From positions 64,001-128,000 of the IMG/VR virus record IMGVR_UViG_3300028840_006907: a stretch of DNA of 64,000 nt. One strand, 5' to 3'. The position numbers and the translations under genes were made by a program. This stretch comes from a virus. Within the stretch, counting starts at the first letter, position 1, and each line of letters starts with the position of its first letter. The notes below the pieces were generated by a model, which saw nothing but the letters and a program-made list of their open reading frames with translations, ran no database searches and was not told where the DNA came from. Below are positions 2,098-54,314 of this stretch, one piece after another.

Positions 2098-2340
2098 AAA
2101 AGAAGTACCAATTGATAGTGGCCCAATCAGTGGATCGTGAAAATGATATTCATACCTTATTTATGTACTATGTAAGCTGGTGGAGAGCCAAATTAAACCA
2201 GTTTACCCATTATATCTTCAATAAGAAGTGCTCCTCAACAACATTAAGAAGAATACCTTTCGTTTAATTTACCTTAATTTCCGAGTAATTTTCTATTAAT
2301 ATTTGTTGCAATATCTAAACCAATTTGGAAGGATATTGCA

Positions 2341-5300
2341 ATGTACTCTATTGATGATTTTATTCAAACTGTTTTTTCATATACTCTTCAGAAACAGAAA
2401 TTCTTCGCAGCAGCAGAACGTGCTTTAAAGAAAAATCTCCAATCCTATATACGCCCCGACTTTTTCGGAACTAGTTCGGGAGATGTCCGACTAGATAATT
2501 TACTTGTATCTCTCGCCAATAGATTGGGTGAAGCTGATGTTGAAGATAAAAGAATTTTTCTTGAAGATGCAGTAAGTGATTTTGTCTCAGAAGAGAAGGC
2601 TGACGAGTTAAGAGCAATCCTTGAAACCAAATTGGAAAGAAAACATAAAATCCCTGAAGAACTAGCTGATAAATTTATCAGTAAATCAGGTTTACTTGTT
2701 GATGAAGAGAAAAAAGAATTTGATCGTGTGAAGAAAGATATGGTCAAATTGATCTCAGGTTTTATTTACGGTTTCTTCGAAAATAAATTTAAAGAATTTG
2801 TACGAGCAAAAAAGAAAAAAGAAGATATCGGTAGAGAAGTAGCCCCGGATCTAGAAGTCCTGCCTGATAGTGAATTAATTGATCAAGCTGAAAAAGAACA
2901 AGAATGGCAAGAAGGTTTAACTAAAGATCTGTTTGGATATATCAATAAAAATGTTCCGGAAAAAAGGCGCTATGCTTATAAAATGATCTTGTTAAAAAGA
3001 TTTATGGTAGCACCAGCTAGTAGGATGGGTTTTGTTGAAATGGCAGAAAAGACAGGAATACCCAAATCATCTCTGGAAGAATGGGAAAAAGATTTGGGCC
3101 GTAGACTTGCTGAATATCTCTCTGCAGGTGGCCTTGGCCCTAAATTCGTTAGTGAGGGTGGCCTTTATAAAAAAGATGTTAAAGTTCCCGATTATAAAGA
3201 TGTTTTTAAAAACAAAGAGAATTCGAATGATTTCAAAGATTTCATGGAAGGCAAACAACCAAAAACCGGTAAACCCATGAGTGAGAAGGTAAAAAAAATA
3301 TTAGAGTTGTTTGCTGAAGGTAAAGATACCAAGGAAATCGAATCACAGACTGATGCGAGTATTGGTCAGATAAAAAAATTAAAAAGTACTCATTTCTCTC
3401 CCTGGTATAAAGAGTGGTATGCTGAAATGCTTAAGGATGTCAGAGAAGCTACAGAACGTATAAAGAAAGCTCTTATGATAATTAATGGTGAGACACCTCC
3501 TCCAGCTTCTCATGAGAAATATGTGAATATGGCAATAGCTAAAAAATACCCTCTTGAACTTACTGTAACTTTTAGTGCCAATTATGATAACCAGGATTTA
3601 ATAAAGGAAAGTGATCGAGTTGATCCGGAAAAAGACCCGGTTGATTTTAAATACAAACATTACCAGGTAAAATTAGAAAGGACCAGTAGACCCCGAATTG
3701 AATATACTTTTGATCAAAAATTAACCGATAAAGGTGATTTTGAAGGTAGCCCTCGATCATCATTGGTCATTGAAGGAAATCCTGGTCATGAAGGTTTGAG
3801 AAGAAGGCTCGATGAATATGTCGAGCAAGAAATGAAACCAGAGGGTATCCTTCCTTACGGTCCTTCGGTAAAGGGTAGAAAACCTGTCCAGATCCCTGTT
3901 GAATATGTAAATGAATCTCTTGATAGTACTAAGACCTATGATGGGTCTAAAAAAAGAAGATATCGTGGATTTATTGATTTCGCTGACAAGTACAAAGGTT
4001 TCATGGTAAAAGACCAACCTCATTTAACCCGGGTTCAGGAAGAAAGTAAAAGGGAAGAGAAGAAATTGTTACCTAAGGGTGGAAAAAATGAAATTCGAAA
4101 ATTGATCCAGCATTTAAAAGAAAATATTGGTGATGAAATGGAAGAGACTACACCCGATAAGAAAAAAGTTGAGGTGTGGAAAAAACAGATTAAAGAATTA
4201 CAGGATCATTTGAAGAAAGATTCTGAAAAAGAAATAGTGGATTTTGTCTCAAAACATAAAGAGAGGTTTAAATTCGCTGTCTCTGAAGAGCGCATGAAAA
4301 ATGTTCGTGAATTGATGAAACTCAGAGAACTAGTAGAAAACCAAGAACAACGATTGTTACAAAGAAAAATGAAAGGTGATCCTAAAGATAAGGATACAGT
4401 TAAACTTAAAGAAGATATAGCAACAAATAAAGATAAAATCACTAAGCTCGAAAAAATCCTTGAAGAAACAAAAGAGCCATTTCCTCCACCAGAATCGGCT
4501 AAAGTTCAAAAGTTATTAAAGGAACTTTCTGATCTCGGTATTAAAGACAGAAAATTAGAAGAATTCCTGACTTCAACTGATCTCCAATTTTTTGTTAACC
4601 AGGTACAAGGTGCTCTGGCCAAGGAAGCACAAGATAATATCGCAGGTGTTAAGAAAAACAAAAATATGAGTGATGAGGAAAAGAAACAGGAATATGAAGC
4701 TATTGAGAGAAAACGTGGTGTAAAGCTGAATAAATTTATCGAGTTGTTTGAAGCTGTACCTGAAGACATGAAAAAACGTCTGGAGAAATATAAAAAGGCT
4801 GATCCCAGTGGGTATAAAAAATTAGAAAAGAAGCATGGGGCTCTTTTAAACTGGGTAAATAATCCTGAAAAAGCCCTCTCTAAAGTAAAACAGAATCTTT
4901 CTACACCGAAAACTCTTGAGGCTCCAAAAGGTAAACAGGAATCAGTGGTACCTATGGAGGAAGAGGATGCTAAATACATGCTCAATTGGCTTGAGGCCCA
5001 GTTACAGGGTTTCGATGTTATAGGAGAAAGATTTGGTCAGGCAGCTTTAAAAGCAGAAGGTTTAAGTCCACAAGAGAGAGTTAAGGTAGAAAAACAATTA
5101 AAAGATACAGAAAAAGAGTTTCAGGATTTACGAAATAGAATAGGTGAAATGGAAGGTAAAGGGAAGGCTACCACTAGTGAAATCAAAGATCTGAAAAAAG
5201 ACATACCGACTTATATGAGAACAATAGAAGGTTTAAAAAGTTCTCTTTCTGATTCAAAAGAATCTCCTGCTATGATTATGGCACAAGTTTTAACTGATCG

Positions 5301-6885
5301 ACTTTCTGATTTCACTAAAATGTACAATCCGTTATCAAAGACTTTATGGTTTAGCCCAAAAACCTATGAGAAGAGAGCAGAAATTGTTACCAGTGAAGAT
5401 GATCCAGCTTTAGCTTCATTGCAAAAGAACATTGCTAAGGATACAGTTTCATTTTCAAAACTCAGCATCTTCGATAAAGAATCCATTAGATCTCTGGCAA
5501 GTACCATCCGGTCAGGTTTATCAAAATTCAAAAAGGAGTTACCAAGAATGGCCTCTTTTAATCCAATCTATTTAACAGTAGAAGAAAAAGCCCTTATGGA
5601 TAAACAAGCTAAGGAAGAAGATCACTTTGAAAAACGTGTTAAATTTGTTTTTCCTGAAGGTGAATTGAATGATGCCAAAAATATGGTAACTCAGCTCAAA
5701 GAGAAGAAATTAGATGATGCATCGAAAAAAGCTCAGAAAGAATTATCAGAATTAATTAAAAATGTCACAAGTGCCTATGATGATTTCGATATAGGTAAAA
5801 TTAAAGCATTGGCAGAAAAAGAGGAGATTTCTGAATCAAAAGCTGCTGTTCGTTTAAAAAGAATAAAAGACTCATTGGCTAAATATGCTCTAAGTCAATT
5901 CATTCTTAAGTGGCAAGATGTCATAGACATGGGATTTAAAGATACTCCAAGAAAGAAAGGACCTTTGGGAGGACCGGAATCCCAAAAATATGATAAAATT
6001 TTGGAAATAATTGAAGAGGATGTACCTGAGTTATTTAAAGAGGCTCCTCCTGAGAAAGAAATAAAAGAAGCTCCTAAAGGCTTACCTACTCCTAAGGAAA
6101 TCAGAGAACGTATCGAAATGGAATTTGAAGAAGGATTTCCAGCACAAAAAGAAAGAGAATACAGAACTCTGAAGGACAAAGGTCATAAATTATTCAAAGA
6201 TCCTTCTGGGGCTGGTGGTGGCGGTGGCGGAAAAGGTAAAAGTCGCCCAAAACCTATAAAGAAACATCCTCCTGCCCATACATATGAAACACTTAAGAGT
6301 AATTTCAAAGAAGCTCTGAAAACAAAATCAGTTCATGACATAGTACTTAGTGAAATAGGCAGGTATTTACATAATGTGAGAAATTATGTGAAAGGTGGCT
6401 CTTATTTCGATGTGGATGATGTTGTTGCTGGAGTTGTCGATGTATTGAAAAATTTTAAAAAAGTCATCAAATCATTAAGAGTAACCATGGATCCAGGAGC
6501 TACTGCAGATATAAAACTGAAAGATGAAAAAGAGGCAAAACAACTTTTTAATAAATTATCAGATATTTACAAATTAATAGATATGATTGCTGCTGATGAA
6601 AGTGGGAAACCTGTTATAAAAATAGGTCCTATACCAGGTGATCTGAGTAAGATAAAAACTCAACGTGGTGAACCCGATACCTGGTTCCCGAAAGGTCTTA
6701 TGGAAGCTGTTCAAGTAAAAAAACGAGAAGAGATTGAAGAAGGAGCAAAAGAGAAAGCTCCTGAAAAGTCAGTTTCAGCAAAAAAAGTATCAGCACAATT
6801 TTTGGCTTTTAAATTAGCACATAAGTTTTCCTTTTCAGATTTACAAAAGATTGAAGGTCTGAAAGAAGATATAGATAAAAAATAA
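2341..6885 (+). CDS. large Lys/Glu-rich coiled-coil protein (1514 aa), possibly virion-associated
   Basis: Single uninterrupted 4.5-kb ORF, GGAAGGA RBS, low-complexity charged sequence with a Gly-rich stretch. Confidence 0.55.
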   Translation: MYSIDDFIQTVFSYTLQKQKFFAAAERALKKNLQSYIRPDFFGTSSGDVRLDNLLVSLANRLGEADVEDKRIFLEDAVSDFVSEEKADELRAILETKLERKHKIPEELADKFISKSGLLVDEEKKEFDRVKKDMVKLISGFIYGFFENKFKEFVRAKKKKEDIGREVAPDLEVLPDSELIDQAEKEQEWQEGLTKDLFGYINKNVPEKRRYAYKMILLKRFMVAPASRMGFVEMAEKTGIPKSSLEEWEKDLGRRLAEYLSAGGLGPKFVSEGGLYKKDVKVPDYKDVFKNKENSNDFKDFMEGKQPKTGKPMSEKVKKILELFAEGKDTKEIESQTDASIGQIKKLKSTHFSPWYKEWYAEMLKDVREATERIKKALMIINGETPPPASHEKYVNMAIAKKYPLELTVTFSANYDNQDLIKESDRVDPEKDPVDFKYKHYQVKLERTSRPRIEYTFDQKLTDKGDFEGSPRSSLVIEGNPGHEGLRRRLDEYVEQEMKPEGILPYGPSVKGRKPVQIPVEYVNESLDSTKTYDGSKKRRYRGFIDFADKYKGFMVKDQPHLTRVQEESKREEKKLLPKGGKNEIRKLIQHLKENIGDEMEETTPDKKKVEVWKKQIKELQDHLKKDSEKEIVDFVSKHKERFKFAVSEERMKNVRELMKLRELVENQEQRLLQRKMKGDPKDKDTVKLKEDIATNKDKITKLEKILEETKEPFPPPESAKVQKLLKELSDLGIKDRKLEEFLTSTDLQFFVNQVQGALAKEAQDNIAGVKKNKNMSDEEKKQEYEAIERKRGVKLNKFIELFEAVPEDMKKRLEKYKKADPSGYKKLEKKHGALLNWVNNPEKALSKVKQNLSTPKTLEAPKGKQESVVPMEEEDAKYMLNWLEAQLQGFDVIGERFGQAALKAEGLSPQERVKVEKQLKDTEKEFQDLRNRIGEMEGKGKATTSEIKDLKKDIPTYMRTIEGLKSSLSDSKESPAMIMAQVLTDRLSDFTKMYNPLSKTLWFSPKTYEKRAEIVTSEDDPALASLQKNIAKDTVSFSKLSIFDKESIRSLASTIRSGLSKFKKELPRMASFNPIYLTVEEKALMDKQAKEEDHFEKRVKFVFPEGELNDAKNMVTQLKEKKLDDASKKAQKELSELIKNVTSAYDDFDIGKIKALAEKEEISESKAAVRLKRIKDSLAKYALSQFILKWQDVIDMGFKDTPRKKGPLGGPESQKYDKILEIIEEDVPELFKEAPPEKEIKEAPKGLPTPKEIRERIEMEFEEGFPAQKEREYRTLKDKGHKLFKDPSGAGGGGGGKGKSRPKPIKKHPPAHTYETLKSNFKEALKTKSVHDIVLSEIGRYLHNVRNYVKGGSYFDVDDVVAGVVDVLKNFKKVIKSLRVTMDPGATADIKLKDEKEAKQLFNKLSDIYKLIDMIAADESGKPVIKIGPIPGDLSKIKTQRGEPDTWFPKGLMEAVQVKKREEIEEGAKEKAPEKSVSAKKVSAQFLAFKLAHKFSFSDLQKIEGLKEDIDKK

Positions 6886-6923
6886 AAATAAAATAAGAGC
6901 CCTCTTAGAAGGCTTGTAAAGGC

Positions 6924-7682
6924 TTGGAGACATCTGTGAAGTATAGCGTACTTGTACCCTACTATAAACGCCTAGGGCACCTACATAATACCTTTATTTC
7001 CTTTCTACACCATTATTCAGATAGAAATGATTATGAGGTTGTCATAGCAGAAGATTATAAAAATGTCCAGAATAAAAAAGACCATGACGGTCTATCAGAA
7101 ACCATTGAGAAATTCCGTGAAAAAATACCGATAATTCATTTAACTCTTTCTATGGAAACCTGGAATCCAGCTCATGGTTTTAATGAAGCTGCAAAGTGGG
7201 CTTCTGGTGAATATTTCGTTGTAACCAATCCAGAATGTTTCCATCAAGTGAACATACTGGCTGGACTCGATAAAGAATTTGAAGAAGACCCCAATGTCTA
7301 TGTTGTATGTGGTTGTATGAATTATGTCCGTTGTAATTTTTTTATTAAAAACTTTAATGATCTAAATGGAAAATTTCAGAGATGGTACCAACACTCAATA
7401 CATAGAGCAGCCCACTATCATTTCTGTTCAGCTATTTCAAAACAGAATTGGGTAAAAATAGGAGGATTCGATGAAGACTTTGCTATGGGTATAGCCTATG
7501 ATGATGTCGATTTTAAATTAAGCATTCAAAAAGCCAAGATACCCTTTCATATCCGGGATGACCTTCTTACTATACATATTGACCATGGTTCCTTCCCATC
7601 TCCTCCAAATGCTCAGAAATTAGTTAATCGAAATAGAATCACCTATCAAAGAAAATGGGAAGGAAGTAATGAATCTTACTAG
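6924..7682 (+). CDS. putative glycosyltransferase-like protein
   Basis: 252-aa ORF with non-ATG start (TTG 6924 or GTG 6936); weak GT-A-like features only. Confidence 0.35.
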   Translation: METSVKYSVLVPYYKRLGHLHNTFISFLHHYSDRNDYEVVIAEDYKNVQNKKDHDGLSETIEKFREKIPIIHLTLSMETWNPAHGFNEAAKWASGEYFVVTNPECFHQVNILAGLDKEFEEDPNVYVVCGCMNYVRCNFFIKNFNDLNGKFQRWYQHSIHRAAHYHFCSAISKQNWVKIGGFDEDFAMGIAYDDVDFKLSIQKAKIPFHIRDDLLTIHIDHGSFPSPPNAQKLVNRNRITYQRKWEGSNESY

Positions 7683-9762
7683 TTATACCGCAGCCGACAG
7701 TATCCCGATAAAATTGATTAAGAACTTTAAATTGTTAAAGTCCATGACAACAAAAGGAGTCATCTTACCAATCCATGTCCAGTTCATACCCACAAATAGA
7801 TGTAACATGAAATGTGGATTTTGTAGCTGTGCTGAAGATGACAGAAAAACAGAAATGTCCCTTAAAAATGCTAAGAAGATCATCAGAAAATTAAAAAAAC
7901 TCGGTACTCAATCCGTAACCATCACCGGAGGAGGAGAACCACTCCTTTATCCTCATCTCCAAGAATTGTTTTCTCTGTTTAAAGATGCCGGGATAAAAAT
8001 CGGTTTTGTTACCAATGGCCTCTTATTAGGTAAATGTACCTATGAAGATGTAACCTGGTGTCGGATTTCTAATTCTGATGAAAGAAAAATGGACATGGAC
8101 TATTATCACACAATAGCTTATGCTGTTGAAGATAACCCAAACGTGGACTGGGCCTTTAGTCATGTCGTTTCTCCAAAACCAAATATCTCCGAAATAAAAC
8201 GGATCATAGAATTTGCCAATCTCCATGATTTTACCCATGTCCGATTAGTAGCTGATCTATTGAATTATAAAGAAGTAGATTTAATGCAGTTAAAAATCAC
8301 TCTTCGAGATGAAAATGTCGATGATGATAAAGTCATCTATCAAAGTAGAAATACCCCGCTCAGAGGCGGAGACTGTTATATATGCTATCTTAAACCCATG
8401 ATAGGGGCTGACTGTAATGTGTACGCTTGTTGTTTAGAGGCTAATGAACCTGTATTAATCCAGAGAAATAACGAAAGGATGTATTTATCTATAAAGGATG
8501 TTGTTCCAGGGGATTATGCTTGTGAATATGGAAAGATTTTAAATGTGTTTCATAAAGAGGGTGAAGAAGGCTTGGAAATAGTTTTGCAAAATAATAGGAC
8601 TATTTATGTTTCGAAAGATCATCTTATGCTTAAATTGACAAACCCTGAAATTAGACATAAGAGAAAGAAGTTATTATCTGACTATGAATTAGATACAATA
8701 GAATCTTCTGAATTAAGAATTGGAGATTTACTTCCGGTCAAATATAAATATGATATTAGTGAAATAAAAGAAGATACTATATCTGAAGAAGAAGCAGAAT
8801 TAATAGGATATTATGTAGCTGAAGGTTGGTCCAATGAACGAACTTGTATAGTTGATAAAAAATATCCTACTAGAACTACCACTATAGGATTTATGCTAGG
8901 GAAAGAGTCAAGAGAATATATAAGAAGATTTGAAGAAATTTGTGATATTTTGAATCTAAATTTTTCTATGACTGAACGTAGAACTGGTATGCAGTATCAG
9001 ATAGGTGCACATAAACCCTACGATGACTTAATTGTACACTGTGGTAATAAAGCAGAATTAAAAAAGATCCCTCCTTTTATTTTAAACGGCTCTGATAAAA
9101 TAAAGTGGAAATTTATTCAAGGCTATTTTGGAGGTGACGGGAATTTTCAAACTCCTTCTAAAAGCTATGATGGTTTTAAAATGAGAATGAGTACTGTCAG
9201 TAGACAACTAGCTAATGATATAATTTATCTCTTTTGTACTTTAAATATTCATGCTTCTATGAGAGTTGAGAGACGTGAAGGAAAAATGATAATAGAAGGA
9301 AGAGAGGTAAATGCTAAAGATCGGTATCATATAAATATAGGGGGAGCCTATAATTTAGAAAAAGCCCCATTCCTAAATGTAATTCAAACAAAAGAAAGAA
9401 GTCCTAAAAGAGCCCTCGGTTTTTTGAAAGATGAGGATAAGGGCATTATGTTTGTACCAGTTAAAGAGATCAGAGAGAAAAAGTTAGGAAAATTAGTAGA
9501 CATTCAAGTGGAAGGTTCAAATAAATTTATATCTTCATTTGGTATAATAGTTCATAATTGTGGCGTCCAGTATGCTCTTAAAAAGCCTTCAAAGAATCTT
9601 CCTAAGAAACTGAGCCTAGGAAGTGCTTTTGATCTTGAGAAGATAATTGAGAACAGTAATAAGCCCCTGGACGGGAGCATGTGTTATCGATGCTATTATA
9701 GTAATTATAACAAGATACTAGGATCCATCCTGGATGATACCGATCATATGGAGTTTGTATGA
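7669..9762 (+). CDS. radical SAM protein interrupted by an intein
   Basis: CNMKCGFC (CxxxCxxC) Fe-S motif near N-terminus; about 376-aa insertion with intein hallmarks. Confidence 0.7.
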   Translation: MNLTSYTAADSIPIKLIKNFKLLKSMTTKGVILPIHVQFIPTNRCNMKCGFCSCAEDDRKTEMSLKNAKKIIRKLKKLGTQSVTITGGGEPLLYPHLQELFSLFKDAGIKIGFVTNGLLLGKCTYEDVTWCRISNSDERKMDMDYYHTIAYAVEDNPNVDWAFSHVVSPKPNISEIKRIIEFANLHDFTHVRLVADLLNYKEVDLMQLKITLRDENVDDDKVIYQSRNTPLRGGDCYICYLKPMIGADCNVYACCLEANEPVLIQRNNERMYLSIKDVVPGDYACEYGKILNVFHKEGEEGLEIVLQNNRTIYVSKDHLMLKLTNPEIRHKRKKLLSDYELDTIESSELRIGDLLPVKYKYDISEIKEDTISEEEAELIGYYVAEGWSNERTCIVDKKYPTRTTTIGFMLGKESREYIRRFEEICDILNLNFSMTERRTGMQYQIGAHKPYDDLIVHCGNKAELKKIPPFILNGSDKIKWKFIQGYFGGDGNFQTPSKSYDGFKMRMSTVSRQLANDIIYLFCTLNIHASMRVERREGKMIIEGREVNAKDRYHINIGGAYNLEKAPFLNVIQTKERSPKRALGFLKDEDKGIMFVPVKEIREKKLGKLVDIQVEGSNKFISSFGIIVHNCGVQYALKKPSKNLPKKLSLGSAFDLEKIIENSNKPLDGSMCYRCYYSNYNKILGSILDDTDHMEFV
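8431..9558 (+). mobile_element. intein with LAGLIDADG-type homing endonuclease domain
   Basis: Starts with Cys (CLEANEP), block-B-like SKDH, LAGLIDADG-like LIGYYVAEGW and FIQGYFGGDGNF, ends IIVHN followed by Cys. Confidence 0.6.
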
Positions 9763-10310
9763 TCCGTTATAAAGAGATCTATGAACGAGTATTTGACATA
9801 CCTCATTATTCCAGAAACCAAGACCGAAAGATTACCTGTTCCCAAGTACATAACTATTTAATAGGAACTGAAAAATCTATCATTGATATAGGATCGGGGC
9901 GTGGGCCTGTTCTTATAGAACTGCTGAATCATTTTCAGAGATCTCAGATATTGTCTTGTGATTTAAAAAAGTTCCATGATATTGAAGTCCCGTTCCTGAA
10001 ACTGGATTTAACTGAGTTCAAGGATCGGGAAGCAATATTGAGGGTCTTTCCACAGTTTGATTTCTTAACCTGTTTTGATGTCCTGGAACATATCGAGCGA
10101 CAGGAATTGCACGCTATTCTCAGATTCTTTAAAGAGCTATCTAAAAAACATCTAATTATTGTAGCAAATCACTCTGATAACTGGGGCCAGGAATTACATT
10201 TAATACAGGAGCCCATGGACTGGTGGGAGGAAAGTTTTGGTGAATATTTTAAGATATTGGATAAAAAGAGTATTCATAATGATAGAGCGTATGTATTCCA
10301 TTTAGAATGA
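9759..10310 (+). CDS. class I SAM-dependent methyltransferase
   Basis: Gly-rich motif I IIDIGSGRGPV and FDVLEHI-type motif. Confidence 0.5.
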   Translation: MIRYKEIYERVFDIPHYSRNQDRKITCSQVHNYLIGTEKSIIDIGSGRGPVLIELLNHFQRSQILSCDLKKFHDIEVPFLKLDLTEFKDREAILRVFPQFDFLTCFDVLEHIERQELHAILRFFKELSKKHLIIVANHSDNWGQELHLIQEPMDWWEESFGEYFKILDKKSIHNDRAYVFHLE

Positions 10311-10320
10311 GAGGTATAGG

Positions 10321-10572
10321 ATGTTTAAAGGACTGATCAATTCGATTAAGGAAGATAACGGTAATGCTTCTTCTACCAGATTTATTATGTATGGTACTGG
10401 AGCTGTTGTCTTAGGGACATATCTTTTTCATAACATACTTTCTGCAGTAAGAGGAGGAGAATTTATTGATTTCCCAGTAAACAGTGTCGTTGTTCTTGGT
10501 ATCGTTCTGACGGGTAAAGTTACACAGAAATTCGCTGAGTTTAAAGGTAGCAATGGGAAGACAGATGCTTAA
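10321..10572 (+). CDS. small membrane protein (holin-like?)
   Basis: 83-aa ORF with two hydrophobic segments. Confidence 0.4.
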   Translation: MFKGLINSIKEDNGNASSTRFIMYGTGAVVLGTYLFHNILSAVRGGEFIDFPVNSVVVLGIVLTGKVTQKFAEFKGSNGKTDA

Positions 10573-10976: not shown

Positions 10977-11540
10977 TTATAGGGATTTATTTGCGTGTGG
11001 AAAAGGTTTAACCACAATTTCTCGATCCAGGAACTTGCACAATGTTGCATATTTATTTTTATCTTCAATATCTATGAGTAGGAATCGGGGTTTGTCTTTG
11101 AAGAACTCTATGATTTCTTCATTCCTCTTATGGTATCGATCTATTATTTCAGCTTTGTTCTCTGGAATAAATTCAATCTTCCATATCCAGTTATACATGA
11201 CTTGTGCATTTTTTAATTGAATCCAATTTAAAACTGAGTTAAACCATTTCTCGGGATCCCGGGTCAAATGAATGAAGTAGGCATCGGGGAACATATCATA
11301 GAGCATTTCATGACTCCCTTCTAAATTGAAAGGGATATCACAAAATAAATTGGCTGTATATTTTCTTAATCGAAAAGCTTTAAAAAGTTGAATCATATTT
11401 TCTTTGGAATGTTTAAGTCCACCTCCAAGATAGAGTCCATATGCTTTAGTAGAGGGAATAGGGTTGAAACCAAGCTTTTTTATGGCTTGTTCCATAGAGG
11501 TTGTACCGGTTTTATTTGAGCCTATACAAAAGACTTTCAT
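10977..11540 (-). CDS. sulfotransferase-family protein
   Basis: N-terminal GSNKTGTTS P-loop-like motif typical of sulfotransferases. Confidence 0.45.
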   Translation of the reverse strand: MKVFCIGSNKTGTTSMEQAIKKLGFNPIPSTKAYGLYLGGGLKHSKENMIQLFKAFRLRKYTANLFCDIPFNLEGSHEMLYDMFPDAYFIHLTRDPEKWFNSVLNWIQLKNAQVMYNWIWKIEFIPENKAEIIDRYHKRNEEIIEFFKDKPRFLLIDIEDKNKYATLCKFLDREIVVKPFPHANKSL

Positions 11541-12019: not shown

Positions 12020-15018
12020 AGGGAAACCCCGCTCAGATGCAGGGAAGAAGATTTCATTAAGAAGTTTTAGGAAGAGCCCCGCAGAGGAGGAACCTCGCAA
12101 GATGCGGGGAAAAGGAACTTCAGGCAATTGGCTGGGATTAGCCCCGCGAAGGTGCGGGGAAAACAGTTTCCATGAACTATATTAGGGAGAGCCCCGTTGA
12201 CACGGGGAAAAACCCGTCTTTACTTAGTGAGATCGAGGAAGGAACAGCCCCGTTGATACGGGGATAAAATAATATGACTTTTACGAATCCTCTAGGGACA
12301 GCCCTGCAGAGTGCAGGGAAAAGTAACGTCTGGGAATTGTTTAGGATTAGCCCCGCGAAGGTGCGGGGAAAGCCATAGATTTTATATTGACACAGGAAAA
12401 ACCCCGGTATAGTCCGGGGAAAAGTACGTAATCAAGATGTAAGAGGATTAGACCCGGCGAGTCCGGGAAAAGATTGGCCCAATCACTATTAAGTAGGGTG
12501 GGATAGCCCCGCAGAATGCAGGGAATAGATGCCTCACTTCATACCACTGCGTCAACCCCAGTAGAGTCCGGGGAACATGAGTGTAAATCTCTGTCGTAGG
12601 TTCAACCCCGGAGAGATCCAGGGGAAATGGGTACAACTTTGTGTACAAGGGGTAGCCCCGGAGAAATCCGAGGAAAATGAGTGTAAATCTGTGTTGAGGG
12701 TCCAGCCCCGCTCAGTGCAGGGAATATTAAGGGTCAAAACCGGTTGCCCCTGCGTCAACCCCGGTGAAGTCCGGGGAACATGAGTGTAAATCTCTGTGGT
12801 AGGATCAACCCCGCAGAGTGCAGGGAAAAATTGAACTTTTTAATCAACCCTGTAACAGCCCCGGAGTCAGTTTTGACAAGTCCGGGGGAATATCACTTCG
12901 TAAAGGAGTGGCTGTCAAGGGGGCAACCCCACAGAGATGTGGGGGAAAGTAAGCCAACGTTCCGGCATAGGCATAGCCCCTGAATTTACAGAGGGCAATT
13001 TTTCCAGTGTCCAGAAGAAGATGCAGGGAGAACCCCGGAAAGTCCAGGGGAAAATGTGTCACAGAACAACTCTTTGTGATCTCCAGGGTGAACCTCGCAG
13101 AGGTGCGGGGGAAAAGTGTCAATGAATACCAGTATGAGTCAGCCCCGGTATAGCCCGGGAATAATTACTTCTAGTCTGATAGAAGGTGCAACCCCGGGAA
13201 GTCCGGGGAAATCGGTCATAGCCATCTGGACCAGGAAGAACCCCGGTGAGATCCGGGGAAAAGGACGTTTAAATCCTGACATAGTAGCTAACTGAGGCGT
13301 AGCTCCGGTCGGGTCAGCCCTGCAGAGAGCAGGGAACAAACATAGGTAATAAATCGGCACGTGACAGCCCCGCAGAGAGGCGGGGATATATAGCGTGAGT
13401 TGCAGGGTAAGGTTCAACCCTTGTTTACCAAGGGAAAAATACCGGCAGATAAGAATTTAGGATGACCCCCGGTGAAAGTCCGGGGAAAATAATTAATACG
13501 CAAAACAGCAGGGCCAGTCCCGCGAGATGCAGGGAATGTTCAGCCAGTTTGTGTAATATTTCAGGAGACGGTGGTGCAACCCTGTCAAGGACAGGGATAT
13601 GCAACATCTGTGGCTCTACGAGGATCAGCCCCGGCAAGTCCGGGGAATTATCTTTTTATAAATGCCAAAAATAACAGTTGGGAGGGGCCAATTCCGCTGA
13701 TGCAGAAAGACATTTCATAATTAATATATTTATGGAAGAGCCCCGGTGAAATCCGGGGAAGTCAAGTAATTACAGCTCGCTGACCACTGGGGGTAGCCCC
13801 GGTAAGATCCGGGGAAAAGTTTGTTTTGAAACAAACGCTAGGAACAGCCCCGCTCAGGTGCGGGAGAATCACTGCATATTTGGTTAATGGCCCCCCTGAG
13901 TCAATCCCGCTCAGGTGCGGGGAAAATAAAGAGATAGACTAATTCAATATGCAGGAAGAACCCCGCTATATGCAGGAAAATTTAAAAAGTATGGATATCT
14001 CCTTGAGTCAACCCCGGAGATCCAGGGAAATGTAGGCACTCGTTGTCCTTTGTCGAAGTGTGAAGGGCAAACCTCGTTGATACGAGGAACAAATTTAGTT
14101 TTACTTTTGAATAAAAGTGGTCAAGCCCCGCTCAGGTGCAGGGAATAGATAAGTATACCGACGATAGCCAGGACAGCACCTGTGGTTTAGCCCTGCATGT
14201 GCAGGGAATAGTTGAGTTGAAGATTGAAGAAAAAGATAAAGTAGGGTCAGCTCTGCATGTGCAGAGAATAGCCTTTCTTCAAGCGTTGACTTGGGAGTAG
14301 GTGGGGATCAGCCCTGCACATGCAGGGAATAGAATGGTGAATCAAATTCCATTTTGTCAAAGAACGGCGACAGCCCTGCCAGTGCAGGGAATATGATTTT
14401 AACGATGGTAAAATTGGGAAGGGGTCAGCCCTGCACATGCAGGGAATAGTCGCTAGTTCAAATCCAATCGCCCCGACAGGATCAGCCCTGCATACGCAGG
14501 GAATAGAAAATACTGACGATAAACTAGCGATATGGGATCAGCCCTGCATACGCAGGGATATAGCTTGACGAATGGCCGTTTTAATGCCAGGAGTAACCCC
14601 GCTGCGAGGAATAGTCATTTCAAATATATAGGTAAAGCCCCGCGAAAGAGCGGGGGTATAATATGGCGGATTTTGTTCTATTGGTGGAATCCGGGCCATC
14701 CCCGTAGATTGACACGGGGAGATCTTTTAGAAATCTACCAAGGTGCCTTTCCGGAGTCATCCCCGTATATACGGGGGAGATTTCAATTCAGGGAATTTCG
14801 GTACAAAATTGGTCGGTTTATCCCCGTATACACGGGGAATATTGTTTCAATAGGGCATAGCAGATCTAGGATCGGGGAATCCCCGCAGGGGCGGGGAACA
14901 TCTCGGATTTATTAATCAAATTCAAACGTTTTTCGGGGAATCCCCGCAGGGGCGGGGAACATTGTTTTAAGAGGTGGTAGTTACCTCGTAGGGGAATCCC
15001 CGCAGGGGCGGGGAACAT
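12020..15018 (-). CRISPR. CRISPR array 1: about 55 hairpin repeat units, three identical leader-proximal repeats, progressively divergent distal repeats
   Basis: Leader-proximal repeat (minus strand) ATGTTCCCCGCCCCTGCGGGGATTCCCC at 14874-14901, 14935-14962, 14991-15018 with 33- and 28-nt spacers; periodic CCCCGC/GCGGGG-type hairpins back to about 12020. Confidence 0.8.
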
Positions 15019-15127: not shown

Positions 15128-17359
15128 CTAGTGGATATACCGAATCCATTCATATCGAATTTTCATCGTTTTATAAGGAGCTTTTTTTCTCCCTGGAAAT
15201 ATGTTTCCTTCAAAAAGGAAAAATTTTTGAACAATTTTAAATTCAGCGTTTGATGGTGTCAAGCTCTGTGGTGCATAATCCGAACGCCAGTAATTATTAC
15301 AATATATAAATTTTTCTTCTCTGTCTTTTTGTATAAGGCCCGGAAACACCACTAAAACTATCTTTTCGTTTTCAATAACAATATCCCCTTGATAAATAGC
15401 TATTTCTAAATCCAGACCATCCTGCTCTATCACACGAGCATATTTCGAGAGTTTCCCATCAATCTTTACTTTAGCTTTAGGGGGAATATCAAAAGTTATC
15501 CATTCACCTTTTATGTCCTTAATGCTTTGAATAGGTTTTTTAACTGGAATTTCTTGAAAGACATGATCTTGGTATTCTGCTTTTTTAAGGATTTCTCCAT
15601 CTTTTTCCATATTAAGCAATAAAGCCTTTTCCATGATGTCTTTAAGTTCATAGAGATCTTTTTCAGTTAAGGGCTCTTTTGTTCCGAATACGATGGAACC
15701 TACATTCTCTAATCGAGCGATTTTATCAAAACCCTGTTTCCGGACAAAGTCTATGGTAATATGTTCTATTTTTCTATTTCTTGAAAGTCTTATGATTCTT
15801 ACAAATTCAGTTTTAATTGTGTCTTTGAAATTATCAAAACTTAAATGATCTTCTACGTAGGGATGATACAAATCCGCTATAAGACTTAATAAAATTTCTA
15901 TGTCTTCAGGTTTATCCTGTTTACGGTTGTAATCATAAGCTTTAATAATTTCTTGTCTCATTTCCATTAATATATCAGGAGCCATTATTTCACTTAAACT
16001 GGTAGATCCTTTTTTGTCCCGATAAAAGGGAGCTGTTGGAAGTAAGGGAATCCTGATAGCAGCACAAAGTTCTGACATTACAATTGAGGTTAAGAACAAA
16101 TTCAATCTGTCTGAATATAATGCCCTGATATTATTACGTTCTTCTTTTTTAATAGGTGGAACATAAATGTATAACCATATTTTATCTTTTTTAGGGTAAC
16201 ATCTGAAAATACGAAACATTATTTGAGAGAAGGTCACCTGACTCTTTCCATAACTTGTATTATGTAAAACAGCAGCAGGAGGCCAATCATACCCTTCATA
16301 GAATATTCTGCAAGATACGGCGACCCAGTATTTTTTATGATTACGTCTCAATAACTCTCTATTTTTTTTCTGAGTTTCCGGTGTGACTAAATCCAGTACT
16401 TTGGACGCAGGATATATTTCGTGAATAGCTTTTAAATATTTTTTAAGGGTTCCTTCCTCTCTGAACCGGTTCCCCATGTCAGGTAATATGACAATGTGTC
16501 TTTGATCTTTGTGCTCTTTCATATATCTAATGATCTGAGTAAGGGGATCTTTCCTATAGTGAGTGAAACGGAAATTGAATTCTTTGATTTTTATGATTGA
16601 GAGATAGTCATTTAATGGGATAACCCATTTTTCAAAATGATGTTTATAAGCATTGGGGACTATTTCTCCTCTGTCTGTGCGGTGGTAAGTAGCTGTATAA
16701 AAATTTACGTTACAAGTAGGTTCATGGATGGTACATACATCTCTGACAAAATCACCCAAATGAGTGGAATCTAGTGGGGTTGATTTTGAATGATGGCATT
16801 CATCTACATGTACAGTTAAATTTCTAAGGGCTTTCTTTTTTTCATAGTTGGTTAATTTTTCCCAGGTCATGACAAACCCTCTATGGGTAGCTGTAGCAAT
16901 AGGGCCTGTTATATGTTTTTCATTGTACGGGTATTTTCGAGGATCTGCTAAAAGGAATTCTTTAAGTCCTTTAATGGATTGAGGGTTTTCACTATTGAAT
17001 TTATGTTCTTTTGGTACTTCCCACAATCTTACCATACCTTTATATTTGATTTTTATTTGTCTATTTTGGGATCTGCAGAAATTTTCACCTATTTCTATTG
17101 TTGGTGCGATAAAGATATGTTTTCGAGTATTTTTAGATATTATGATTTCATCCAGGGATATGCATACTGCTAAAAAAGTTTTGCCGACTCCCCCTGGTGC
17201 ATCAAAGATCATGTATCTGAATTTTTTCCCATATTCTTTTGCATTGCATTGCCAGCCAGAGGGTATCATGATCCCTGATTCAAGTTTTTTATTATAGGTA
17301 CCAAGGTCAACCGGTTCTATTTTAATAGATTGCTGGAAAAGCGGTAATAGCTTTTTCAT
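15128..17359 (-). CDS. SF2 helicase, Cas3-like helicase module without HD nuclease domain
   Basis: Walker A DAPGGVGKT and DECHH box; in-frame stop 18 codons upstream excludes an N-terminal extension; no HD dipeptide. Confidence 0.6.
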   Translation of the reverse strand: MKKLLPLFQQSIKIEPVDLGTYNKKLESGIMIPSGWQCNAKEYGKKFRYMIFDAPGGVGKTFLAVCISLDEIIISKNTRKHIFIAPTIEIGENFCRSQNRQIKIKYKGMVRLWEVPKEHKFNSENPQSIKGLKEFLLADPRKYPYNEKHITGPIATATHRGFVMTWEKLTNYEKKKALRNLTVHVDECHHSKSTPLDSTHLGDFVRDVCTIHEPTCNVNFYTATYHRTDRGEIVPNAYKHHFEKWVIPLNDYLSIIKIKEFNFRFTHYRKDPLTQIIRYMKEHKDQRHIVILPDMGNRFREEGTLKKYLKAIHEIYPASKVLDLVTPETQKKNRELLRRNHKKYWVAVSCRIFYEGYDWPPAAVLHNTSYGKSQVTFSQIMFRIFRCYPKKDKIWLYIYVPPIKKEERNNIRALYSDRLNLFLTSIVMSELCAAIRIPLLPTAPFYRDKKGSTSLSEIMAPDILMEMRQEIIKAYDYNRKQDKPEDIEILLSLIADLYHPYVEDHLSFDNFKDTIKTEFVRIIRLSRNRKIEHITIDFVRKQGFDKIARLENVGSIVFGTKEPLTEKDLYELKDIMEKALLLNMEKDGEILKKAEYQDHVFQEIPVKKPIQSIKDIKGEWITFDIPPKAKVKIDGKLSKYARVIEQDGLDLEIAIYQGDIVIENEKIVLVVFPGLIQKDREEKFIYCNNYWRSDYAPQSLTPSNAEFKIVQKFFLFEGNIFPGRKKAPYKTMKIRYEWIRYIH

Positions 17360-17628: not shown

Positions 17629-18273
17629 TTAATAAGATTTATACGGTGCAATAAGCATCATACCACATCCGAAACCTTTACTCTTACCAATTCCATTATA
17701 AATAGTATTCACAAAAAGATTTTTATTGACTACCTGAAGGACTCCTCGTAAATCAATACTGAAAAAAGATACAACTTTACCATCTTTTTTTTTGAATTTA
17801 CAGAATTGAAAAGATTGAACGGAATGCTTTTGAATCATATTTTTAAAACCGTAACTTTGGCCACGTTTCTGAAGCCAATTCTTTGAGGATTCGTGAGCAA
17901 TGAAATTCCAATTATAGGGTTCATCAAGAACTTTCATTTCATTTGCCAGATCCGTCATGATTGAAACCTTTTTCCTGGTTTTCAATTTACAAACTTCGGC
18001 ATTGAGTCTGAGATCGTATTGAAGAAATATTCCAGATTTTAAATTATTTAAATCGAATACTTTTGTTTGTGTAGTGTATTCGTCCTCTGGAGGATTTGGT
18101 TTCTTTTTTGATATGATATAAAGTTCACCATTATAGAGATAATAAAGGAAATCTCTTACCCTGTTAGATCTTTGATCACCAAAAAATTCCCAGACTTTTT
18201 GATGAAGCTCATATATACCTTCGGTGGGAGAATATCTTCTCAAGCTGTCACTGTAAATTTTACTCAGAAACAT
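17629..18273 (-). CDS. cas6e: Cas6e (CasE) endoribonuclease
   Basis: Start set at internal Met (GGAGG RBS); MFLSKIY N-terminus and C-terminal GIGKSKGFGCGMM resemble E. coli CasE. Confidence 0.75.
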   Translation of the reverse strand: MFLSKIYSDSLRRYSPTEGIYELHQKVWEFFGDQRSNRVRDFLYYLYNGELYIISKKKPNPPEDEYTTQTKVFDLNNLKSGIFLQYDLRLNAEVCKLKTRKKVSIMTDLANEMKVLDEPYNWNFIAHESSKNWLQKRGQSYGFKNMIQKHSVQSFQFCKFKKKDGKVVSFFSIDLRGVLQVVNKNLFVNTIYNGIGKSKGFGCGMMLIAPYKSY

Positions 18274-18910
18274 TCGATACCTCCTTCCATCCCATATACT
18301 CAATTCGGGATCGGTATTGTTTGGGACCGGTTACCTGATCAAAACGTTGATTGCTTTTTACTATTTTGATACTGGTATCGGTACCTTCCCAAAATATTCG
18401 GTTCTTTTCACGCCCTTTAAGACTACCATTAAGAAATTCAGGAAGAGAGTACTGTTCAAACGCCTCTGAGAGGCTCTCAGCCTTAACGATCTTAGGATCG
18501 GGTGGTATGTCATAGGAACAGCATTTCCTTCCAAGAAAGGGGGTATAGATGGGCCTATTAAGGGCTTCCATTATTTTCTTCAAAGTATAGGGACAGTTTT
18601 CATTCTCCCATATACATACGGTAAAGATGGCATTGACTAGGTAAAATCTATTCGAGACAATTCCTGGTCCGACTCTGACAATATGGAAATCTTTTAGAAT
18701 AGTACCAGGATTATCTTCCCTACAGGCAAATCCTAGTTGGGCAATCTGAGTTAATTCTTTCACCATTTCTCTTGAGACTCCAAGAGAAGCAGCGATTAAC
18801 CCGCTTACGCCAGATTTGGTAGGGTGATCATCTGTCTTTCGGGTATTACCCTGAAGGGGGAGACCCCAGGCGGATAGAGTACCCGAAAGAAGGAATAATA
18901 AATAATTCAT
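18260..18910 (-). CDS. cas5e: Cas5e (CasD)
   Basis: MNYLLFLLSGTLSAWG and YTPFLGRK resemble E. coli CasD MRSYLILRLAGPMQAWG and YTPYLGRR. Confidence 0.8.
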   Translation of the reverse strand: MNYLLFLLSGTLSAWGLPLQGNTRKTDDHPTKSGVSGLIAASLGVSREMVKELTQIAQLGFACREDNPGTILKDFHIVRVGPGIVSNRFYLVNAIFTVCIWENENCPYTLKKIMEALNRPIYTPFLGRKCCSYDIPPDPKIVKAESLSEAFEQYSLPEFLNGSLKGREKNRIFWEGTDTSIKIVKSNQRFDQVTGPKQYRSRIEYMGWKEVSNVSE

Positions 18911-18933: not shown

Positions 18934-20019
18934 TTAGAAATCGATGAATTTAATAAGTTCGTTAAGTGATCCTTCTTTTGTGAGTACATTCAAGATCCTA
19001 TAATCCATTTCATGGTAACATGAATCAAAACTACTTTTCATGTCAAGAAGGGCTTTGACAGCATTTTCCATAACCGCAGGACCTTTAATAGGAGTATGGA
19101 AGGCTTGACAGAGACTTCGTGGGGCAGTTGGAGCTTTTTCGATCATAACGAATGCTGGCCATGTTTGACTATCAGCACATCTGTTTTTATTAGCTGAGGG
19201 GGATGAAGTGGTTAATACTTCGACTATCTGTCGGATGGTTTTGATAGCTAGTTCTTTATTACCTTGAAGATTTTTCGTTAAGAGCTTGGAATTGATTACA
19301 AAGAAACTATAATAGACACCCTGGGTAAAATAGAAATTATCTAGGTGACCTGAACCTTTGGTTCCTTCTAATCCAAGGTTATCGGTAGCTGTAAAATAGT
19401 CGGTTTGGACAGATCCTATATCATTGACAGTAAAAGCGAAATTTGAGGACAGTGAAGCTTCAACATCATATTGGGGCAGTTTTGCAATCATGCGACCGGT
19501 AAGGGCTGTTCTGATTCCTGTATTTTCTTTTAAAAAGAAGAATTCTTGATCAGTGGGTTTATGCCCCTCAATAATTTTGTCAATCAGTTCTTCAATATGT
19601 TGTCTTTCGCTCGGTTGAATTTTAATGGTTTCGGTTTTAAGAAGATCAACCTTTTTTTTCTTTTTCTTTGTATTTTTATCATCTTCTTTTTCAGTGTGCT
19701 TTTTGATATCAACAAAAGTACCAATAAATTTAAATGCGTATTCTTCAGCTTTTTTAGGTGATATTCCACCATCAATTAATCTTTTCTCGACATATTTTCC
19801 AATAAGAGGAGTCTGAAGACCTATATCGATTTCGCACCTTTCAAATAGAGCCTTGTTTAAATCATATTTTCGATTTTGTGAAGACGAATAACCTCGGTTG
19901 GTATCATTAAGTTTCATTGTTTTAGGACGTCCGTCCTGGCCTCGGTTTATGCTAGATACAGCTACACCAGTGAGAAGGTGAATTAACCAGTAGGGGTCTT
20001 TAATAATAGTTTTAGACAT
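18934..20019 (-). CDS. cas7e: Cas7e (CasC) backbone subunit
   Basis: 361 aa; N-terminal SSINRGQDG...SSQ pattern like Cas7e SxLNRDD...SSQ. Confidence 0.75.
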   Translation of the reverse strand: MSKTIIKDPYWLIHLLTGVAVSSINRGQDGRPKTMKLNDTNRGYSSSQNRKYDLNKALFERCEIDIGLQTPLIGKYVEKRLIDGGISPKKAEEYAFKFIGTFVDIKKHTEKEDDKNTKKKKKKVDLLKTETIKIQPSERQHIEELIDKIIEGHKPTDQEFFFLKENTGIRTALTGRMIAKLPQYDVEASLSSNFAFTVNDIGSVQTDYFTATDNLGLEGTKGSGHLDNFYFTQGVYYSFFVINSKLLTKNLQGNKELAIKTIRQIVEVLTTSSPSANKNRCADSQTWPAFVMIEKAPTAPRSLCQAFHTPIKGPAVMENAVKALLDMKSSFDSCYHEMDYRILNVLTKEGSLNELIKFIDF

Positions 20020-22264: not shown

Positions 22265-22586
22265 GACAGCCCCGGTAAAGTCCAGGGAAATAAAAATTAG
22301 TGATAATTCGGGAATCAGCAGGAGGAGAGCATCAGCCCTGCGTATGCGGGGAATAGTGTTATCGTCTTACAGGATGTAAAGCAGAGACAGCCCCGCGTAT
22401 GCGGGGAATAGAAATTAATACATCTCATAAAATCTAGCATCAGCCCCGCGTATGCGGGGAATAGTTATTTATCTATACTTCCTACAACTCCCATAACGCA
22501 TCAGCCCCGCGTATGCGGGGAATAGCTCGTTGGTTTTCCCATTCCACAAAAGTTCAACGCATCAGCCCCGCGTATGCGGGGAATAG
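22265..22586 (-). CRISPR. CRISPR array 2: five 28-bp repeats plus a degenerate terminal repeat, four spacers
   Basis: Repeat (minus strand) CTATTCCCCGCATACGCGGGGCTGATGC at 22329, 22384, 22437, 22498, 22559; spacers 27, 25, 33, 33 nt. Confidence 0.85.
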
Positions 22587-34425: not shown

Positions 34426-34502
34426 TGGTACCCCAATCAGGACTCTAACCTGAAATCTTTGGCTCCGGAAACCAACGCTTTATACAATTAAGCTATTGGG
34501 GC
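34426..34502 (-). tRNA. tRNA-Arg (anticodon CCG), CCA encoded
   Basis: Hand-folded cloverleaf: GCCCCAA/TTGGGGT acceptor, loop TTCCGGA, atypical T-loop. Confidence 0.5.
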
Positions 34503-34511
34503 ATTATAAGA

Positions 34512-34586
34512 TGGCGGTGCGTAAGGGAATCGAACCCTTGCCAGGAGATCGACAGTCTCCGGTCCTAACCACTGAACGAACGCACC
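34512..34586 (-). tRNA. tRNA-Asp (anticodon GTC), CCA encoded
   Basis: GGTGCGT/ACGCACC acceptor, loop CTGTCGA, T-arm GGTTCGATTCC. Confidence 0.7.
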
Positions 34587-34595
34587 GTATTTTTA

Positions 34596-34760
34596 TTAAT
34601 CAATTTTTTTATTTCCGATAAAAAGACCGCAGTCGCATTGCCGAGCCATTTTCGTTTTATTCTTTATTACAATGCCTATTGCTTTAATAGGCTTTTTACA
34701 AGTGTTGCAAATATTTTGCTGTGTCTTTTTGTCATGCTGTTTCACTGCTGTTTTAGCCAT
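34596..34760 (-). CDS. micro zinc-ribbon protein (54 aa)
   Basis: Hand-translated MAKTAVKQHDKK...CNTCKK...CDCG; AAGGAG RBS. Confidence 0.35.
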   Translation of the reverse strand: MAKTAVKQHDKKTQQNICNTCKKPIKAIGIVIKNKTKMARQCDCGLFIGNKKID

Positions 34761-34782
34761 TACTTGTACTCCTTAAATGTTA

Positions 34783-34856
34783 TGGCAGGGACGGTCAGAT
34801 TCGAACTGACATCGCCGGTTTTGGAGACCGGGTGCTTGACCGTTAGCGACGCCCCT
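34783..34856 (-). tRNA. tRNA-Trp (anticodon CCA), CCA encoded
   Basis: Loop CTCCAAA, T-arm GTCAG TTCGAAT CTGAC. Confidence 0.65.
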
Positions 34857-34871
34857 GTATTGACAAATTTT

Positions 34872-35045
34872 TCATGATTTGAACCATTCACTACAACCTT
34901 CGGCTAGTTCTAATAAATGAACACAAGGTTTTGTTTCTTTTGCCAGAACACAGCCACACACTGTACAAATTACCACAGCAGGTTTCAAATCATGTTTCTC
35001 AATTTCAGCGAATGCTTTCACTATATCATTCACTATATCATTCAT
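34872..35045 (-). CDS. micro Cys-rich protein (57 aa)
   Basis: Hand-translated MNDIVNDIVKAF...CTVCGC... Confidence 0.3.
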   Translation of the reverse strand: MNDIVNDIVKAFAEIEKHDLKPAVVICTVCGCVLAKETKPCVHLLELAEGCSEWFKS

Positions 35046-35062
35046 TTTTTCTCCGAATTATC

Positions 35063-35135
35063 TGGGCGCAGACGGACTTGAACCGCCCACGAATGGCTTA
35101 TGAGACCACTACTCTACCGACTGAGTTATACGCCC
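35063..35135 (-). tRNA. tRNA-Met (anticodon CAT)
   Basis: GGGCGTA acceptor, loop CTCATAA, T-loop TTCAAGT; no CCA. Confidence 0.65.
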
Positions 35136-35143
35136 TTGACTTA

Positions 35144-35221: not shown

Positions 35222-35227
35222 GTATTT

Positions 35228-35728: not shown

Positions 35729-35748
35729 ATATTAATTTTTCTTTCTAA

Positions 35749-54294: not shown

Positions 54295-54314
54295 ATGCAT
54301 ATAAAGGGGAAATA

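Follow-up and report, generated by a model that had tools for sequence, protein, structure and literature searches.

Evidence for a LAGLIDADG-bearing intein within a radical SAM gene of a probable huge phage

The 64,000-nucleotide stretch of DNA analysed here (the window, at its full length) covers positions 64,001 to 128,000 of the IMG/VR virus record IMGVR_UViG_3300028840_006907, and contains, at 7669-9762 on the plus strand, a single unbroken open reading frame (ORF) of 697 codons whose translation is a radical S-adenosylmethionine (radical SAM) protein. Within it lies an in-frame insert of 376 amino acids (1128 bp; protein residues 255-630, window positions 8431-9558), which a reading of the DNA letters and their translations (the sequence-only reading) had proposed to be an intein with a LAGLIDADG-like homing endonuclease. 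Each of the motifs named in that proposal, from the initial Cys (CLEANEPVLI) through SKDH, LIGYYVAEGW and a second LAGLIDADG-like motif to IIVHN followed by Cys, is found in the translation where it had been placed. The parts of the gene are as follows, with invariance referring to the 14 intein-bearing alleles described below unless otherwise stated.

7669-8430, plus strand: N-extein, residues 1-254, comprising the radical SAM core with CX3CX2C at C45/C49/C52 and ending ...D-C-N-V-Y-A-C
Cys254, plus strand: extein residue -1, the last residue of the N-extein, invariant in the alignments designated A1 and A4
8431-9558, plus strand: intein of 376 aa, in which a LAGLIDADG endonuclease domain divides a HINT splicing domain in two
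8431-8433, plus strand: Cys1, the N-terminal splicing nucleophile, in block A (CLEANEPVLI), invariant in 14/14
8611-8622, plus strand: block B, S61-K62-D63-H64 (the TxxH motif with Ser replacing Thr), S61, D63 and H64 invariant in 14/14
8779-9360, plus strand: LAGLIDADG homing endonuclease domain, approximately intein residues 117-310, as located by phmmer, Pfam and Foldseek
8800-8829, plus strand: first LAGLIDADG motif, LIGYYVAEGW, residues 124-133, with Glu131 at the catalytic position and G126 and G132 invariant
9112-9147, plus strand: second LAGLIDADG motif, FIQGYFGGDGNF, residues 228-239, with Asp236 at the catalytic position and D236 and G237 invariant in 14/14
9493-9537, plus strand: block F, LVDIQVEGSNKFISS, with Asp357; D357 and F366 invariant; corresponds in alignment to block F of gp41-1 and PI-PkoII
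9541-9558, plus strand: block G, GIIVHN, with the penultimate His375 and terminal Asn376, both invariant in 14/14
9559-9762, plus strand: C-extein, residues 631-697 and stop, starting with Cys+1 (9559-9561) and holding C672-x2-C675, which is invariant in alignments A1 and A4

The insert opens at codon 255 (TGT, 8431-8433), the first of CLEANEPVLI, and closes at codon 630 (AAT, 9556-9558), the last of ...IIVHN, after which codon 631 (TGT, 9559-9561) supplies a Cys that is invariant in 14/14 alleles and takes the second Cys position in the host's invariant 'CC-G-x-Q-Y' motif. The two junctions share the codon TGT, which leaves the boundary at the DNA level ambiguous by 3 bp; 255-630 is the only choice that yields Cys1 ... 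His-Asn / Cys+1 and brings back the invariant 'ACCG' of the host. In the second LAGLIDADG motif, FIQGYFGGDG carries Asp236 as its acidic residue.

The spliced 321-aa sequence that remains when residues 255-630 are removed matches 886 proteins, and the best 120 of these 886 are all without the insert, at 49-73% identity and with lengths of 260-357 aa (nearly all 313-357 aa); query coverage among them is nearly always 97-100%, with one shorter 260-aa match at 81%. These lengths bear out the earlier statement that the ORF is about 376 aa longer than expected. Alignment to intein-free homologues, the check that had been suggested for this locus, gives a clean insertion: with 12 homologues the sole large gap is a 376-residue block between the invariant Cys-Cys and Gly (...VYAC-C / G-x-Q-Y-A...), the region is absent from the homologues, and the junction residues are invariant among the alleles that carry it, an outcome that favours the proposal over the refuting condition that had been named, a normal domain of the host protein.

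The closest homologue (P0001, 73% identical) is a 322-aa intein-free allele. It lies on L001, a contig of 18 kb that shares synteny with the window: both have a ~1500-aa Lys/Glu-rich protein, a GT2 glycosyltransferase, the radical SAM protein, a small ORF, a sulfotransferase, a 743-aa helicase and Cas6e. Comparison of window positions 1-22000 with this contig by blastn gives matching blocks at 2286-8433 and then at 9559-9784, so that exactly the 1128 bp of the intein (+/-3 bp) are missing. The identical 697-aa protein is encoded on 6 public contigs, one of which (388,651 bp, from JGI metagenome 3300017963) reproduces the local gene order. A blastn search of the gene against GenBank phages gives no match, and tblastn against the same collection finds only distant inteins (~25% identity) and distant radical SAM cores; as far as these sequence searches extend, no catalogued phage carries this intein allele.

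The nearest relatives in the phage collection, at ~25% identity over the whole intein, occur in RCS47, P1 (OP279344), vB_EcoM-Ro157c2YLVW, the Aeromonas phages PS1 and PS2, and EBPR siphovirus 2. They sit in genes annotated as dmt DNA methyltransferase (the P1-like phages), thymidylate synthase (the Aeromonas phages) and methylase (the EBPR siphovirus), and these records may hold unannotated inteins.

The endonuclease domain of the insert is recognised by the Pfam hidden Markov model (HMM) LAGLIDADG_3 (PF14528) at 37.7 bits against a cut-off of 22.5 (E 2.4e-9; intein residues 227-288), with a weak match to Pfam Hom_end, and a phmmer search of the PDB matches intein residues 117-275 to PI-PkoII (2cw7; E 8e-9). 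On both sides this domain is flanked by the HINT blocks A, B, F and G, and the gp41-1 mini-intein aligns weakly with the insert at blocks B and G. When the insert alone is compared with NCBIfam, the best matches are proteins that contain inteins (Tes with its intein, RNA polymerase A'' and GyrA with its intein), and four relatives (P0121-P0124) carry precomputed matches to the Pfam model Intein_splicing (PF14890). An AlphaFold2 model of the intein, built from five sequences (predicted local distance difference test score, pLDDT, 72.5; predicted template modelling score, pTM, 0.74), was compared with the PDB by Foldseek, and the 16 best matches are all endonuclease-bearing inteins: the top match is TliVMA (7qsu; E 3.6e-20), followed by 7qss, PI-PkoII (2cw7), PI-PfuI (1dq3), PhoVMA and PI-SceI (1vde), with E-values up to 1e-11, those of the whole inteins 7qsu, 7qss, 2cw7, 1dq3 and 1vde up to 1e-13, and template modelling (TM) scores of ~0.5-0.66. 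The free-standing LAGLIDADG enzymes I-DmoI and I-Tsp061I come next (E ~3e-6, TMt ~0.7), in agreement with the alpha-beta-beta-alpha-beta-beta-alpha fold of that family. Such E-values, together with the base-exact 1128-bp indel, lie well outside what chance would produce.

In addition to these distant structural relatives, a lineage of closer alleles occupies the same insertion point. A word-indexed search with the intein returned two intein-bearing radical SAM proteins, P0121 (56% identity) and P0122 (51%), and an exhaustive HMMER search of 1.84 billion cluster representatives yielded 938 relatives at E<=1e-3, of which 13 reach E<=1e-30; 11 of the top HMMER matches (P0125-P0135) are radical SAM proteins of 620-700 aa whose intein occupies the corresponding '...xC / C...HN / C-G/R-x-Q-Y' site. 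Together with the window copy these form the alignment of 14 alleles, in which the identity of the inteins is 32-60% and C-1, C1, S61, D63, H64, K211 (of KKIPP), D236, G237, D357, H375, N376 and C+1 are invariant in 14/14. Position 131, in the first LAGLIDADG motif with its invariant glycines, is Glu or Asp in 13 of the 14. The window copy retains all conserved splicing and nuclease catalytic positions, and the retention of both sets over such divergence argues for selection on splicing and nuclease activity alike.

The inteins and their host proteins do not share a single pattern of similarity. The best intein match, P0125, is 59.8% identical to the window copy in its intein and only 40.4% in its extein, and the best extein match among the intein-bearing proteins, P0129, is 51.6% identical in its extein and only 37.5% in its intein. 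The GC content at third codon positions (GC3) likewise differs within the gene, at 20% in the intein, 35% in the N-extein and 42% in the C-extein. This incongruence, together with the difference in GC3, suggests horizontal homing between diverged alleles. Intein-free target alleles are present in close relatives; the 42-bp empty site reconstructed from the flanks in the window, GACTGTAATGTGTACGCTTGT / TGTGGCGTCCAGTATGCTCTT, shares 33/42 bp with the empty site of contig L001 (a hand count for these two sites).

Two further relatives were noted outside this set of alleles. P0137 is not a radical SAM protein and holds a related intein that ends ...GILTKN / CG, with Lys replacing the penultimate His; P0138 is a radical SAM protein in which a related intein with non-canonical termini apparently lies just before GGGEP (...EWS / IDGDEPILI...CFD / TGGGEPLL).

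Several observations weigh against the identification of the insert as a mobile, functional intein. Intein_splicing (PF14890) reaches 35.0 bits on the window protein against a cut-off of 35.8 (E 1.5e-8), and is therefore 0.8 bits short, and the NCBIfam model TIGR01445 reaches 12.4 bits against 24.5; the Thr that most inteins have in block B is Ser here; and the confidence of the intein structural model is moderate, with four disordered loops. With respect to mobility, unequal evolutionary rates could partly explain the incongruence between inteins and exteins, and the overall GC content of the intein (30.9% versus a window mean of 34.8%) lies at the 12th percentile of windows of the same size, so that composition alone is weak evidence of foreign origin, GC3 being more telling. 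Splicing and DNA cleavage, both of which are probable, are moreover activities that we infer. An HMM cut-off is an annotation convention rather than a defining property of inteins, and since the curated intein models miss theirs, the assignment rests on the junction residues, the fold and the empty-site comparison. On these three grounds the proposal of an intein with a LAGLIDADG homing endonuclease inside the radical SAM gene is upheld, and we consider it very likely that 8431-9558 is a genuine endonuclease-bearing intein. Judged from its residues, the insert is a canonical class-1 intein in which a double-motif LAGLIDADG endonuclease interrupts the HINT domain and every canonical splicing residue is present.

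A pathway for the element can be proposed on the pattern of the established class-1 intein mechanism. The 697-aa precursor would be translated first, and Cys1 would undergo an N-S acyl shift at the Cys254-Cys255 bond; Cys+1 (Cys631) would then attack the thioester, giving a branched intermediate by trans-thioesterification, and cyclisation of Asn376 with the help of His375 would release the intein. An S-N shift would finally join the exteins, yielding a 321-aa enzyme that reads ...NVYAC-CGVQYAL... and has the family's invariant ...VYAC-CGVQYAL.... The site-specific endonuclease, with Glu131 and Asp236 in its active centre, would act as the freed intein or still within the precursor, cutting intein-less alleles at a target that is roughly GACTGTAAAGTGTATGCTTGC / TGTGGAATTCAGTACGCTTTA, as in contig L001, and repair from an intein-bearing copy during co-infection or recombination would spread the element.

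The alternative that survives best accepts the intein and disputes its mobility. If the element were decaying, splicing would be kept, since the host enzyme depends on it for its function, while the endonuclease no longer cuts, and the intein would be fixed and immobile, as the homing cycle predicts after fixation. Signs of decay are present in the lineage, where P0133 has Lys at the first catalytic position ('SKGW') and P0122 lacks a 10-residue segment beside motif 2, and the finding that 6/6 contigs with this phage's allele carry the identical intein-bearing protein is compatible with fixation. The window copy, however, retains both LAGLIDADG motifs as well as Glu131, Asp236 and Lys211 in a full-length domain, and alleles that could still serve as targets exist in its close relatives, which makes decay in this copy unlikely, if the most plausible of the alternatives.

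A second alternative, somewhat less probable still, is that splicing is conditional: a disulfide or a metal at Cys-1/Cys1/Cys+1 would block it until conditions are reducing or anoxic, and the intein would act as a redox- or Fe-S-gated switch. The junction brings together three cysteines in a row (C254, C255 and C631), with C249 at position -6, and Cys-1 is invariant in 14/14 alleles. An analogy is offered by the Pab MoaA and PolII inteins, MoaA being a radical SAM enzyme. The intein in the Pyrococcus abyssi MoaA protein shows cysteine-based redox control (PMC3922620). Against this proposal, Cys-1 and Cys+1 are also invariant in the intein-free homologues, so that the host enzyme alone explains both cysteines, and inteins in general prefer conserved sites. 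The further suggestion that the intein is not merely parasitic, and would make the maturation of an oxygen-sensitive enzyme conditional on a reducing or anoxic cytoplasm, thereby providing a huge phage with a switch for a glycan-modifying pathway, is more doubtful again and draws on the same analogy. The Cys-1/Cys1/Cys+1 junction is an attractive candidate for a redox-controlled intein tool.

It is extremely improbable that the region is a normal accessory domain of the radical SAM family or a non-splicing bacterial intein-like (BIL) domain, a reading to which the sub-threshold scores of the curated intein models lend themselves. BIL domains are HINT domains of proteins that vary and are not conserved, and as a rule they have neither a +1 nucleophile nor an endonuclease, whereas the terminal His-Asn, the +1 Cys, the LAGLIDADG domain and the invariant host site form the pattern of an intein; an accessory domain is opposed by its absence from all of the best 120 homologues and, to the base pair, from contig L001, and both versions by a fold that matches endonuclease-bearing inteins. 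Nothing speaks for a chimera made in assembly, or for a sequencing error that put a free-standing homing endonuclease gene into the frame of the host, and this reading has a negligible probability: the same 697-aa protein lies on 6 contigs and is therefore no chimera, 13 further proteins from different cluster representatives are interrupted by an intein at this position, and the endonuclease is enclosed on both sides by HINT blocks (A, B, F and G).

As an endonuclease-bearing intein, the insert shares a common architecture with the archaeal inteins TliVMA and PhoVMA (7qsu, 7qss, 7qst), PI-PkoII and PI-PfuI, whose structures are solved, and with yeast PI-SceI, in all of which a HINT domain with Cys1, a His-Asn terminus and a +1 nucleophile is split by a double-motif LAGLIDADG endonuclease. 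Its identity to these inteins is 12-20%, and their hosts are V-ATPase, DNA polymerase and ribonucleotide reductase. At 376 aa it is smaller than PI-PkoII (537 aa) and PI-PfuI (454 aa), and no obvious extra DNA-recognition or stirrup domain was detected in it. The gp41-1 cyanophage-like mini-intein (6qaz) is phage-borne, as the window intein appears to be, but has no endonuclease.

Compared with the inteins known from radical SAM enzymes, those of MoaA and the tetraether lipid synthase Tes are archaeal and belong to different radical SAM subfamilies, with insertion sites other than that in the window. The model for intein-containing Tes (NF045703) aligns with intein residues 116-376 at E 3e-8, and its score of 31.8 bits is so far below the cut-off of 1700 bits that an identification of the window protein as Tes was rejected. 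Among phages, huge phages are rich in inteins and homing endonucleases, and Jug and crAss-like huge phages have inteins in terL, nrdD and DNA polymerase (PMC12880540). Known phage inteins, including those of mycobacteriophages, likewise occupy conserved sites in enzymes and are mostly in genes for replication, packaging and nucleotide metabolism, in contrast to the auxiliary radical SAM gene of a glycan- or sugar-nucleotide-type that is interrupted here. One paper on a Campylobacter phage speaks of inteins and of radical SAM genes, each on its own. No description of an intein in the present radical SAM family, or at the insertion point seen here, was found in the literature searched, a scope that leaves out most subscription journals and InBase.

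The window intein is a textbook bifunctional intein, which leaves the current understanding of inteins unchanged, and what appears to be new, within the literature searched, is its host gene: the list of intein hosts is extended to an uncharacterised SPASM/twitch-like radical SAM family found in glycosyltransferase/methyltransferase clusters of phage-like contigs. The mature host enzyme would be of 321 aa and not 697 aa, and because automated annotation barely flags the insert, with the curated models at or below their cut-offs, prediction of function and modelling of structure for such proteins need the intein removed. The 14 alleles at one site, with their discordant intein and extein similarities, also constitute a natural data set for homing among phage auxiliary genes.

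The host enzyme matches the Pfam radical SAM model (PF04055) at 59.9 bits against a cut-off of 29.5, and its C45-x3-C49-x2-C52 is invariant in the host family (alignments A1 and A4). Matches to sequence HMMs are confined to its first ~100 residues and are of the generic radical SAM core type only. A structural model of an intein-free homologue (pLDDT 92.1) has its closest folds in DesII (8hzv) and BlsE (7vob), followed by SkfB, SuiB, PqqE and anSME, at E-values of 5e-12 to 1e-9 and 14-21% identity, in keeping with the partial TIM-barrel core of the radical SAM superfamily. DesII and BlsE are radical SAM enzymes that act on sugar nucleotides or nucleosides. With all six enzymes the host shares its fold, the CX3CX2C motif and a Cys-rich C-terminal part; the host family is without a curated model or known substrate.

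Although the top fold neighbours include SPASM/twitch types, the spacing of the host cysteines departs from the textbook SPASM motif, CX2CX5CX3C, and Pfam SPASM has no match in the host protein. Outside CX3CX2C, the invariant cysteines of the host family are C131, C236, C254, C255/631, C672 and C675, which would suffice for an auxiliary [4Fe-4S] cluster, and the Cys-Cys dipeptide probably belongs to an auxiliary-cluster motif. The point of insertion marks this dipeptide as functionally critical in the host family, and because the intein would split a metal-binding pair, the unspliced precursor should be inactive.

The radical SAM gene lies between genes for a GT2 glycosyltransferase and a class I methyltransferase, with a sulfotransferase nearby, and the homologues of the host enzyme sit in similar gene clusters. 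The neighbouring genes are as follows.

6924-7682: GT2 glycosyltransferase, beside the radical SAM gene
9759-10310, plus strand: class I SAM methyltransferase, overlapping the radical SAM stop
10977-11540: sulfotransferase (Sulfotransfer_4), near the radical SAM gene
46655-47758: nucleotide-sugar epimerase (PHROG 540, E 4e-79), farther from the radical SAM gene

From its fold and this gene context we infer a role of the host enzyme in sugar or glycan modification, and the glycosyltransferase, sulfotransferase and epimerase suggest that the phage encodes a capacity of this kind around the radical SAM gene. The methyltransferase has no counterpart in contig L001 (no blastn match to window 9785-10368) and constitutes a second indel, adjoining the intein. 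A joint arrival of the two, which are both present in contig L002 and both absent from L001, was considered and rejected: the methyltransferases of the window and L002 are only 27% identical over 91 residues, and intein-free relatives have other methyltransferases nearby. Upstream, a Lys/Glu-rich protein of 1514 aa (2341-6885, plus strand) has no Pfam or PHROG match, and its counterpart at the same position in L001 (1540 aa, ~71% DNA identity) has a weak HTH_3 match.

The sequence-only reading had also held that the intein fits a phage origin. The origin is made probable by the context, but the intein alone is no argument for it, because inteins occur in all domains of life. The window has 21 tRNA genes in 64 kb, with three clusters at 34426-35822, 53795-55328 and 60768-63431, and a full-length transfer-messenger RNA (tmRNA) at 47870-48282 on the minus strand (Rfam RF00023, 159.9 bits), a combination typical of huge phages that remodel translation. 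Several of its ORFs match PHROG and the relatives are phage-like. No capsid, terminase or other hallmark structural gene was seen among the window ORFs scanned, for which reason the designation as phage is probable rather than proven; together with the 388,651-bp contig, the tRNAs, tmRNA, PHROG matches, phage-like relatives and a type I-E-like Cascade operon point to a probable huge phage as the source. The window contains no second intein by a scan with an HMM of the intein family and a junction motif.

The Cascade operon of this phage-like genome (15128-21989, minus strand) is made up as follows.

20046-21989, minus strand: Cse1/Cas8e
18934-20019, minus strand: Cas7e (PF09344)
18260-18910, minus strand: Cas5e
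17629-18303, minus strand: Cas6e (PF08798)
15128-17359, minus strand: ResIII/DEAD helicase of 743 aa, without an obvious HD domain

The helicase may be a Cas3; contig L001 has a helicase and Cas6e at the same place, and neither Cas1 nor Cas2 was seen among the window ORFs scanned. A short and regular CRISPR-like array lies at 22326-22586, with 5 repeats of ...CAGCCCCGCGTATGCGGGGAATAG at a spacing of 53-61 nt, and further arrays lie at ~14184-14564 and 14872-15018. The region between ~12000 and 14150 is unusual: over 2 kb it holds the same hairpin (CCCCGN...CGGGGAA) in dozens of degenerate copies, irregularly spaced and often 45-62 nt apart, and beside the Cascade genes this field looks like decayed or mini-spacer arrays.

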